A stretch of 64,000 nucleotides of DNA from an uncultured Collinsella sp. (GTDB lineage: Bacteria > Actinomycetota > Coriobacteriia > Coriobacteriales > Coriobacteriaceae): assembly GCA_902490565.1 (NCBI GenBank), contig CABUEK010000004.1:18156-82155 (forward strand), written 5' to 3'. The notes under the pieces are model-generated. The model was not told where the DNA came from. It worked only from the letters and a program-made list of their open reading frames with translations, and ran no database searches. Below, piece after piece: positions 3,303-4,466 of this stretch (the stretch's first letter is position 1; every line of letters starts with the position of its first letter). The translations under genes were made by a program, and so were the position numbers.

Positions 3303-3438
3303 ACCAAGCGCACAGGCGAAGCCTGTCACTAGTAAGTGTCCCTACCTAGCAAGAGCCCCTACCAATAAAAAGCAACTATCAGCCCGGCGCTTTTACAGAG
3401 TGTAGGTCCCTGTAGCCGCCGCCAGCGAAGTGAACGTA

Positions 3439-3563
3439 GGGGAGGCCAGGGGCTTTGCCCCCAAATCTTTCCGCAGGACGGCAGGACCCCCGCCGCACGA
3501 AGTGCGCAGCGGGGGTCCTGCCATGTCCGAGGACGATTTGGGGGCAAAGCCCCTGGCCTCCCC
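3439..3563 (-). repeat. family-A composite palindromic element, copy 1 (after thrB)
   Basis: 29-bp perfect outer stem, linkers TTTCCGCAGGAC / ATGTCCGAGGAC and a 14-bp inner stem. Related copies at 8890-9017 and 15536-15656. Confidence 0.75.
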
Positions 3564-3584
3564 GGCGAGTATACGGGACGGCGA

Positions 3585-4466
3585 CTACAGGTATTCGATC
3601 TGGGCGCCTTCCGTGTCGCACGTGAGGATATGCGTATCGCACTTGGGGAACTGCTCGCGCAGCTTGACCTGCAGGAACTTTGCCACGATGGTGTCGTCGG
3701 TCACAGCCATGAGGGTCGAGCCCGAGCCGCTAATCCAGATGGTCTTAGCGCCGCCGTTAAGGCAGGTGTCGCGCACAGCGTTGTAGTCGGGGATGAGGCG
3801 GCGGCGATAGGGCTCTTGGATGCGGTCGTCGTTGGCGGCGGCAATCAGGTCAAGGTCGCCGGTCTCCAGGCCGCGCGTCATGCCGGCGATGCGGCCCATC
3901 TGCCACACGGCGGTGGAGAGCGGAATCTCCTGCGGCACGACCTTGCGCGCCTCGCTCGTGTGTACCTCGTAGGGCGGGATCACGGTAATAAAACGCAGGC
4001 GATCGCTCACCTCGTAGCGCAGGCACTGGGGGAGCGAATCGGTCGGCGTAAAGGAGCAGACGGCGCCGCCCAGGATGGCGGGGGCGACGTTATCAGGATG
4101 GCCCTCGACTTCGGTGGCAATGCGGACGAGCTCGGCACGGTCGACGGTGTGGCCCGTCAGCGCGGCGGCCGCCATGATGCCAGCGACGACGCAGGTGGAG
4201 CTGGAACCCAGGCCGCGAGCGACGGGCACATCGGTTTGAATGTCGATGGCAACGGGAAAAGCCGGCTCGCCCCATGCAGCCAGTGCATCGACAAAGCTCA
4301 CGTAGACCAGGTTGTTCTCGTTTTGGAATTCCTCGGGGCAGCCCGTGATGGTGAGTTTGTCGGCGCGCTCGAGGGTGAAGTGCGAGTAGAGGCTGACGGC
4401 CATGCCGAGGGTGTCGTAGCCGATGCCTAGGTTGGCGCTGGTTGCTGGGACGGTGATTTTGATCAT
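3585..4466 (-). CDS. thrB: homoserine kinase
   Basis: MIKITVPATSANLGIGYD and PVARGLGSSS GHMP-kinase motifs. AGGAGG RBS before ATG at 4466. The 5' extension in the ORF track was rejected. Confidence 0.9.
   Translation of the reverse strand: MIKITVPATSANLGIGYDTLGMAVSLYSHFTLERADKLTITGCPEEFQNENNLVYVSFVDALAAWGEPAFPVAIDIQTDVPVARGLGSSSTCVVAGIMAAAALTGHTVDRAELVRIATEVEGHPDNVAPAILGGAVCSFTPTDSLPQCLRYEVSDRLRFITVIPPYEVHTSEARKVVPQEIPLSTAVWQMGRIAGMTRGLETGDLDLIAAANDDRIQEPYRRRLIPDYNAVRDTCLNGGAKTIWISGSGSTLMAVTDDTIVAKFLQVKLREQFPKCDTHILTCDTEGAQIEYL

Follow-up and report, generated by a model that had tools for sequence, protein, structure and literature searches.

Interspersed palindromic repeats at the 3′ ends of genes are a well-known and broad kind of bacterial repeat. 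The REPs of E. coli are a mobile repeat and an mRNA 3′ hairpin at once, and when transcribed they can stabilise the upstream mRNA; signals of the phage T7 R1.1 and retroregulator type leave or form a protective 3′ hairpin. Collinsella is among the commonest human gut Actinomycetota. In this study, we analysed a 64,000-nucleotide (nt) stretch of DNA (the window) from an uncultured Collinsella sp. (assembly GCA_902490565.1, contig CABUEK010000004.1, positions 18,156 to 82,155 of the forward strand), in which an earlier note had described three copies of a composite palindrome, here called family A, behind thrB (copy 1), pfkA (copy 2) and asd (copy 3). Family A belongs to the broad kind named above: it tags core fermentation and glycolysis genes at their 3′ ends with a common structure whose orientation is fixed and whose loops are conserved.

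The family orientation is defined as the strand reading TCCGCAG ... CGAGGAC. A pattern scan (TCCGCAGRMC-N36-60-ATGKYCGAGGAC) of one genome per GTDB species returned at least 120 loci, and sorting the 126 pattern-matching elements by their flanking DNA and upstream protein gives at least 14 genomic sites. The proposal of a multi-copy family with conserved internal-loop sequences is borne out by more than 120 further loci that carry the conserved linkers. Every site lies 6–36 nt past the stop codon of a different gene. The genes at these sites encode pyruvate:ferredoxin oxidoreductase (PFOR), phosphofructokinase (PFK), class II fructose-bisphosphate aldolase (FBA), phosphotransacetylase (Pta), PEP carboxylase (PEPC), an iron alcohol dehydrogenase (Fe-ADH), a small glycyl-radical GrcA-like protein, GroEL, a MIP/GlpF-type channel, a class IV branched-chain (IlvE-type, BCAT) aminotransferase, Asd, ThrB, an oligopeptide (Opp) ABC ATPase and a P-type ATPase. 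Most upstream genes are central carbon or fermentation genes, which are normally very highly expressed, as is presumed here. In the window, the gap between stop codon and outer stem measures 21, 23 and 12 nt for copies 1, 2 and 3, in agreement with the 12–23 nt reported previously, and the identities of thrB, pfkA and asd were confirmed by Pfam.

At 14 of 14 sites the family orientation is opposite to the gene strand (two-sided binomial P ~1e-4), and the mRNA would carry the reverse complement of TCCGCAG...CGAGGAC. Around the 126 elements, stops of open reading frames occur on the 3′ side only (family orientation) in 91 cases, on both sides in 16 and on the 5′ side only in six. The single orientation relative to the gene that had been claimed from three copies thus holds across sites, with the reservation that the core is flipped in the few strains described below. 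Copies 1 and 2 are oriented opposite to copy 3, although GC skew keeps one sign over 1–44 kb, and six loci (L026, L046, L055, L061, L069 and L087) each hold two elements ~210 nt apart in opposite orientation, which together suggest that element orientation tracks the gene rather than replication. The element remains linked to its upstream gene when downstream synteny changes: where ThrB is 85% identical and followed by a different downstream gene (L158-160), both the family-A element and the stem over the stop codon are retained. Frequently the element lies between convergent genes, with no other terminator nearby.

A role at the mRNA 3′ end is favoured by this gene-fixed orientation, by the position after the stops of presumed highly expressed genes, by the lack of another terminator, by the linkage to the upstream gene and by the constrained asymmetric loops described below. 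The explanation that we tentatively prefer, at somewhat short of an even chance, is that family A is a REP-like repeat serving as a very stable stem-loop at the 3′ end, by which the message is terminated or protected or which undergoes RNase III-like processing, with its loops read by a trans-acting factor. The element would be transcribed as the tail of the upstream-gene mRNAs, and its very stable stem-loop would define or protect the transcript end, acting either as a 3′ exonuclease barrier and U-tract-independent terminator or as a processing signal of the RNase III type. The trans-acting factor might recognise the element by its conserved internal loop and tip. The near-perfect arms would be maintained at the DNA level by template switching between arms, not by selection for RNA pairing, and copies may spread and exchange cores through recombination or gene conversion between sites, like REP-type repeats.

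The predicted folds are very stable, with energies of -147.7, -122.9 and -119.5 kcal/mol for copies 1, 2 and 3 (z = -13.8, -11.5 and -14.9; 0 of 200 dinucleotide shuffles as good). Under RNA parameters the mRNA-sense strand is the more stable one by 3.9 kcal/mol; under DNA parameters the two strands do not differ. As the earlier note had stated, no U-tract terminator follows any copy (scan of 1–17500, both strands), and the sequence after the stems is GC-rich. Canonical U-tract terminators with short stems and GNRA loops are present elsewhere in the window, at 4636–4655 (after thrC) and 1892–1938. That the elements are plain hairpin-only ("I-shaped") actinobacterial intrinsic terminators, copied between sites by recombination and with loops that have no specific partner, appears improbable. 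Such terminators would account for very stable hairpins placed directly after stops, often between convergent genes that lack another terminator, but the same genome possesses the two canonical terminators, a symmetric hairpin terminator needs no fixed orientation, and the loops are conserved over at least 14 sites and many species while the stems turn over, which argues for specific recognition.

Family A is a nested palindrome of 120–130 nt with a 27–29-bp outer stem, a 14–16-bp inner stem and a 5-bp tip carrying a C-GNA-G loop, which is GAA or GTA in nearly all family members. Between the outer and inner stems lies an asymmetric module, 5′-TCC-GCA-(4 bp)...(4 bp)-GA-GGA-CG-3′, and at several sites the stop-codon region of the gene pairs with an inverted copy on the far side to form a third, outermost stem. 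In copy 1, all the parts listed in the earlier note (a 29-bp stem, two 12-nt linkers, a 14-bp inner stem, a small tip and a 12/13 stem over the thrB stop) are present in the sequence (Table 1), whereas its treatment of the linkers as simple loops needs correcting. In the fold, TCC of linker 1 pairs with GGA of linker 2, GCA forms an internal loop and GGAC pairs with GTCC; linker 2 provides, in order, an AT bulge, the GTCC helix, the GA loop, the GGA helix and a C. What stays unpaired is a 3x2 internal loop, in which GCA faces GA, together with small bulges (TT/C, AT). Each linker is itself a small dyad (TCC GCA GGA; GTCC GA GGAC). Two other interpretations of the linkers were rejected. They are not a target-site duplication (direct repeats TCCG(C)AGGAC), because the variable 4-bp parts of copy-3-type elements are inverted (GACC/GGTC, GCAC/GTGC), and the GCA/GA loop is not a K-turn as judged from sequence, because the second tandem pair would be G·G and not A·G.

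The linkers of copy 2 are identical to those of copy 1, and these two copies are homologues with ~88% identity. Copy 3 is strongly diverged from both and has in common with them only TCCGCAG and (ATGnn)CGAGGAC, its linkers matching at 8/12 (linker 1) and 10/12 (linker 2) positions. The statement that linkers are kept in all copies is therefore correct for copy 2 and for linker 2 of copy 3 and too strong for linker 1 of copy 3. Nor are the stem sequences "entirely different", as had been thought, since copies 1 and 2 are so similar and the outer arm of copy 3 is still recognisably homologous. Across sites, the outer arms are site-specific yet recognisably homologous (GGG-yTwAC-yTyCC-rrmrC), which indicates that the whole ~125-nt element is one evolutionary unit.

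Conservation falls on TCCGCAG, CGAGGACG and the C-GNA-G tip, while the stems turn over completely. Among 19 members recovered independently of the pattern, CGAGGACG is invariant, TCCGCAG is kept with two single-base exceptions and the C-GAA-G tip is kept, and the conservation is therefore not an artefact of the search pattern. In strains with the same Asd or ThrB protein, nucleotide diversity (pi) in the element is 0.019 and 0.009, respectively (asd core 0.002), as low as in the coding sequence (0.007 for asd and 0.020 for thrB), while the flank beyond the element reaches 0.18 and 0.055. The asd copy (copy 3) is present in 10 of 10 other strains. These data bear on the idea that the elements are non-functional by-products, palindromes produced and enlarged at gene ends by template switching, which share a core only by common descent. 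The outermost stems do repeat the 3′ end of the gene itself in inverted form (17 bp at the PFK site, 17 bp at Opp and 13 bp at Fe-ADH; shorter at the thrB, GrcA and Pta sites), as outward palindrome growth would yield, and the stem mismatch spectrum given below is neutral. We nevertheless give this idea very little credence, because the core is as little diverse as coding sequence and because the asymmetric GCA/GA loop, the AT and CA bulges and the fixed orientation persist though inner stems have been wholly replaced.

In an alignment of 37 sequences, 97.2% of cells are paired (31–51% with slid partners), and 22 of 38 pairs are altered on both sides. The covarying stems claimed in the earlier note are thus real, but they are not a clean sign of selected RNA. 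The stem mismatch events comprise 36 G:T, 36 A:C and 70 transversions, a 25/25/50 split that is the expectation for new unselected mutations, and wobble pairs are tolerated on neither strand. At the asd site, a matching one-base insertion is found in both arms (CTAG -> CTCAG/CTGAG). The mismatches without G·U preference, the matched insertion and the near-perfect 45–50-bp arms suggest that the arms are probably kept complementary at the DNA level by template switching within the palindrome (quasi-palindrome correction), and covariation is then no proof of selected RNA structure. Correction of this sort would be expected to remove asymmetries. The GCA/GA loop, the bulges and the orientation have nonetheless survived the replacement of the inner stems, which indicates that the asymmetric parts are under selection.

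The helix between the loops also covaries (GGAC/GTCC, GACC/GGTC, GGG/CCC, GCAC/GTGC, GATC/GATC and GACAA/TTGTC), which indicates that the folded form is constrained rather than the duplex. This finding argues against a DNA-level structural site, i.e., a cruciform or protein site that manages supercoiling or convergent transcription, at which a dimer would read two TCC-N2-3-GGA dyads ~55 bp apart. The association with central-metabolism genes presumed to be highly transcribed, the small dyad in each linker and the lack of wobble tolerance in the stems would suit such a site; no candidate binding protein has been identified, and we consider this explanation highly doubtful.

Elements at the same site vary considerably between strains. 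The GlpF site has three inner-stem types, the Opp site carries a copy-1-type or copy-3-type core between similar arms, and family A takes at least four strongly differing forms at the thrB site (that of the window, that of L144/L157, L139 and L158-160). The third-level stem at the thrB site covaries between strains (CCTGTAGACATCGC/GCGATGTCTACAGG in L144 and L157) and is retained in species with a different downstream gene. The 5′ junction is CGCAG/G at most sites (the slash marks the junction; GTAG in copy 1), and the 3′ junction C/CGGAC is frequent.

Several observations weigh against the preferred mRNA 3′-end role. In strains with an identical PFK protein, family A is present in 4 of 10, and an unrelated long hairpin occupies the same frame (CATC/hairpin/TGCG) in the other 6 of 10, so that the family-A core is dispensable at PFK. 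This "type Y" hairpin has a C-GGA-G tip and an ACGCAG/G junction on the non-mRNA strand. Three variants (L104 and L045 at the aminotransferase site, L127 at the PFK site) have kept their arms and flanks but carry the core in inverted orientation. The ~50-bp stems greatly exceed the length needed for termination or for blocking exonucleases, and G·U pairs are not tolerated on the transcribed strand. Moreover, C-GNA-G and the GCA opposite GA (tandem G·A) lie on the non-mRNA strand, and the mRNA has UNC and UGC/UC loops.

Part of this evidence would fit a selfish DNA hairpin of the REP/REPIN, MITE or Correia type, on whose single-stranded DNA an enzyme encoded elsewhere (HUH/Y1 or other) would act, with loops and junctions as binding and cleavage sites and with gene 3′ ends merely the places where insertion is tolerated or targeted. 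We regard this as unlikely, although it is the main rival. It would explain the dispersal over at least 14 sites with conserved 5′ and frequent 3′ junctions, the different core subtypes at one site (three at GlpF; copy-1-like or copy-3-like at Opp), the cores flipped between otherwise identical arms, the other hairpin family in the same frame at PFK and the lack of an element after thrB in C. tanakaei and "Parolsenella". The C-GNA-G motifs, all on one strand, and stem mismatches without wobble preference point the same way, as C-GNA-G motifs form very stable DNA mini-hairpins. However, copy number is low, the sites are orthologous across many species, and the gene-linked orientation is unlike what strand-specific single-stranded DNA transposition predicts. 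No target-site duplication, no direct repeat flanking the element and no precise empty site were found, the flank-projection search having given only artefacts. The REP/RAYT option of the earlier note was not backed either, as copies are few and tblastn searches with YafM, IS608 TnpA and IS200 TnpA (approximate query sequences) over ~1.2 Mb of element-containing Collinsella loci revealed no RAYT or Y1 gene near the copies. The lone match was an IS200-type TnpA in one Collinsella metagenome-assembled genome (L095:44-469), which shares 54% identity with the IS200 query and lies at a distance of 5.5 kb from a copy of family A; the end hairpins of this IS200 are unrelated to the family. A phage or plasmid origin was likewise rejected, with no phage match and a sole "plasmid" match to a 900-kb chromosome-like C. 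aerofaciens replicon.

It is also conceivable, though rather improbable, that the elements are substrates of a novel DNA-hairpin-recognising enzyme that flips and swaps cores between sites. The GCA/GA bubble, the C-GNA-G tip and the CGCAG junction would then be read on folded single-stranded DNA of the template strand where very actively transcribed genes end, and family A would represent a new mobile or recombining palindromic cassette without a known transposase, its arms kept perfect by intra-palindrome correction. The mRNA 3′-end role and the selfish REP/MITE-like hairpin are not exclusive, and both can hold, as they do for the REPs of E. coli.

Family A is specific to one part of Collinsella, the C. 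aerofaciens group, which includes the organism of the window. Of the loci listed by the pattern scan, all but one are labelled Collinsella or Coriobacteriaceae, and the sole exception, labelled Acutalibacteraceae, is identical to a Collinsella site. The earlier note had proposed a covariance-model search, and a covariance model (CM), R1, was built from 37 gap-free members. Applied to the fetched loci, R1 recovered additional members that do not match the search pattern; applied to the whole window with filters off, it returned exactly three copies (108.7, 81.1 and 60.7 bits), with all else below 19 bits. A fourth candidate at 33944–34000 scored only 11 bits and was rejected as a member. The copy number is low, with three in the 64-kb window, six blastn places in the 900-kb C. 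aerofaciens replicon NZ_OY725717.1 and, by CM search, no copy in a 50-kb stretch of that replicon. The element is present after thrB in other species with ThrB at 85–92% identity and was not found downstream of thrB in C. tanakaei and "Parolsenella" (ThrB 85–88% identical; differing synteny). The assembly collection has exact matches to the PFK, Asd and ThrB proteins in 354 to 3,359 of its sample blocks, on contigs that look like human-gut metagenome DNA.

Searches of the whole window against Rfam 15, including Collinsella-1, yielded no match at gathering thresholds, in line with the earlier remark that this is not a recognised family. The best sub-threshold matches are generic long hairpins (e.g., Dictyoglomi-1 with 30.5 bits, its threshold being 150). 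Nothing relevant to family A emerged from literature searches combining Collinsella or Coriobacteriia with REP, RAYT or palindromic repeats, and in the literature searched Collinsella-1 appears only in Weinberg 2010. Family A is apparently undescribed; a catalogue of human-microbiome RNA motifs names Collinsella candidates, with whose motif sequences it was not compared. The coordinates of the three copies and their associated features are given in Table 1.

Table 1. Family-A copies, their parts and the adjoining genes (window positions unless a locus is named).
Feature	Position	Strand	Basis and remarks
Copy 1 outer stem, 5′ arm	3439..3467	+	Sequence reading and fold; GGGGAGGCCAGGGGCTTTGCCCCCAAATC, 29 bp, perfect, read directly from sequence
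Copy 1 outer stem, 3′ arm	3535..3563	+	Sequence reading
Copy 1 linker 1, TTTCCGCAGGAC	3468..3479	+	Fold
Copy 1 linker 2, ATGTCCGAGGAC	3523..3534	+	Fold
Copy 1 inner stem (14 bp), 5′ arm, GGCAGGACCCCCGC	3480..3493	+	Reading and fold; covaries family-wide
Copy 1 inner stem, 3′ arm	3509..3522	+	Sequence reading and fold
Copy 1 tip, 5-bp hairpin CGCAC-GAA-GTGCG (C-GNA-G triloop), then CA bulge	3494..3508	+	Fold
Copy 1 outermost (third-level) stem, left arm, CCTGTAGCCGCCG	3409..3421	+	12/13 pairs with 3579-3591
Copy 1 outermost stem, right arm	3579..3591	+	Sequence reading; includes thrB stop codon, CTA at 3585-3587 (minus strand)
thrB, homoserine kinase, 293 aa	3585..4466	-	Pfam GHMP kinase; homologues named homoserine kinase; mRNA would bear copy 1 as 3′ end
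Copy 2	15536..15656	+	Outer arms 15536-15563 and 15629-15656, 25/28 paired; CM 81.1 bits
Copy 2 outermost stem, left arm, GACGAATAGTCTCGGCC	15504..15520	+	16/17 pairs with 15672-15688; 17/17 in other strains
Copy 2 outermost stem, right arm	15672..15688	+	Includes PFK stop codon (15680-15682, minus strand)
pfkA-type 6-phosphofructokinase	15680..16759	-	Pfam PFK; stop codon 23 nt from copy 2
Copy 3	8890..9017	- (family orientation)	Outer arms 8890-8916 and 8991-9017, 27 bp perfect; CM 60.7 bits
Copy 3 inner arms	8929-8944 and 8962-8977		Tip GCTCC-TTC-GGAGC on plus strand
asd, aspartate-semialdehyde dehydrogenase	7765..8877	+	Pfam Asd; stop codon 12 nt before copy 3
"Type Y" hairpin GGGCCCTCCGACCCCGCCCGACG... 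downstream of PFK	L002, L005, L007-L010: 5104-5200		Replaces family A at the exact same place

The thrB gene adjoins the threonine synthase gene thrC, and its start is the ATG at 4466 rather than position 4538, with an AGGAGG ribosome-binding site ahead of it. Between thrC and thrB, a separate composite palindrome at 4477–4596, with 22-bp outer arms (GCGGGTCTGACCGTTTAGTTCG), a 9-bp tip stem and a TTAA loop, lies directly after the canonical terminator at 4636–4655 (minus strand) and directly before the thrB ribosome-binding site. L144 and L157 lack the HTH_3 and DUF3990 gene pair that follows thrB in the window (2604–3302 and upstream). Only some strains have a CI-like HTH gene behind PFK, and the DNA just beyond the elements is strain-variable. 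One element (L082:3574-3664) joins a left half of the PFOR-site type to a right half of the Fe-ADH-site type, and is either a recombinant of two copies or a mis-assembly of a metagenome-assembled genome. Beyond the PFOR-site element, on the side away from the gene, ~80-nt tandem units (CCCAAAGT...GTTTCGCG-N4-8-CGCGAAAC) were identified at L047:4650-4900 and also in L032, L128 and L084, in one to three copies depending on the genome.

The genome is generally rich in long palindromes. Long imperfect inverted repeats at 15259–15480, between an FtsX-type gene and copy 2, and at 49725–49854 have 42–43-nt arms and common TTCCGGAATTTGC and GAATACT motifs, and seem to form a second repeat family. Other intergenic hairpins, long and near-perfect, have 17–28-bp arms unrelated in sequence to family A and are found at 42628–42683, 26384–26447, 19951–20019, 1892–1938, 21091–21135 and 61399–61441. 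The region 34596–34824 contains three ~80-bp tandem units, each with two TCTCAATCTGTAACAG-like motifs in inverted arrangement, reminiscent of operators or iterons. A large gene at 53200–56300 consists of many 42–105-nt repeats encoding alanine-/lysine-rich, coiled-coil-like units, and its product is probably a surface protein.

Should family A prove to act in factor-dependent termination, in stabilisation or in processing, it would offer a handle for expression engineering in Collinsella and a pointer to an RNA- or DNA-binding partner. The family also provides a natural example of perfect hairpin "covariation" that was probably made by DNA palindrome correction and not by RNA selection, which is a caution for covariation-based structure-discovery pipelines.

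Compared with the repeats mentioned at the outset, family A resembles REP, BIME and REPIN elements in being an intergenic palindromic repeat, mostly at gene 3′ ends and variable between strains, and perhaps in its conserved tetranucleotide at the 5′ foot of the hairpin (GTAG in REP, GCAG or GTAG in family A). REPs, however, are single hairpins of 20–40 nt in hundreds of copies, often arranged as inverted doublets, with a RAYT gene flanked by REPs. Family A is ~125 nt long with three nested levels and occupies roughly 15–25 sites per genome, short of the tens to hundreds of copies typical of REPs; its doublets, with two copies ~210 nt apart in opposite orientation, are confined to one locus; its sites are orthologous across species, its orientation to the gene is fixed, and no RAYT was found near its copies. 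Correia elements, Neisseria MITEs of 100–155 bp, likewise adjoin genes, form long hairpins when transcribed and are reported RNase III substrates that alter mRNA stability. They differ in their 26-bp conserved terminal inverted repeats, TA target duplication and hundreds of copies, whereas family A combines variable termini with a conserved centre in few copies, with no duplication seen. More generally, the conserved terminal inverted repeats, target-site duplications and empty sites of MITEs were not found, and the outer arms vary by site.

The stem feet of the three copies (GGGGAGG.../GGCGGGG.../GGAGGCC...) contain no R''/R' boxes (RYYYAAC ... GTTRRRY) of integron attC sites, and the upstream genes are housekeeping genes rather than cassettes. 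Like intrinsic (Rho-independent) terminators, family A places a GC-rich hairpin straight after a gene; unlike them, it has no U-tract within a few nt at any of the three copies, its stems total ~50 bp, its internal loops are conserved and its sequence is common to several sites. The RNase III signals of phage T7 (R1.1 type) and 3′ "positive retroregulator" hairpins such as the B. thuringiensis cry terminator have the same layout of lower stem, asymmetric internal loop, upper stem and loop, and they too stand at message 3′ ends. Their sequences are unrelated to that of family A, which has much longer stems and is chromosomal and repeated behind housekeeping genes. Nevertheless, the architecture that RNase III signals have (20 bp or more of double-stranded RNA plus an asymmetric internal loop) is present in the 27–29-bp stem, the 3x2 loop and the 14+5-bp stem, provided that the element is transcribed, as its position 12–23 nt after stop codons suggests. 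By analogy, the T7 and retroregulator signals may serve as the closest working model for a function of family A in RNA.

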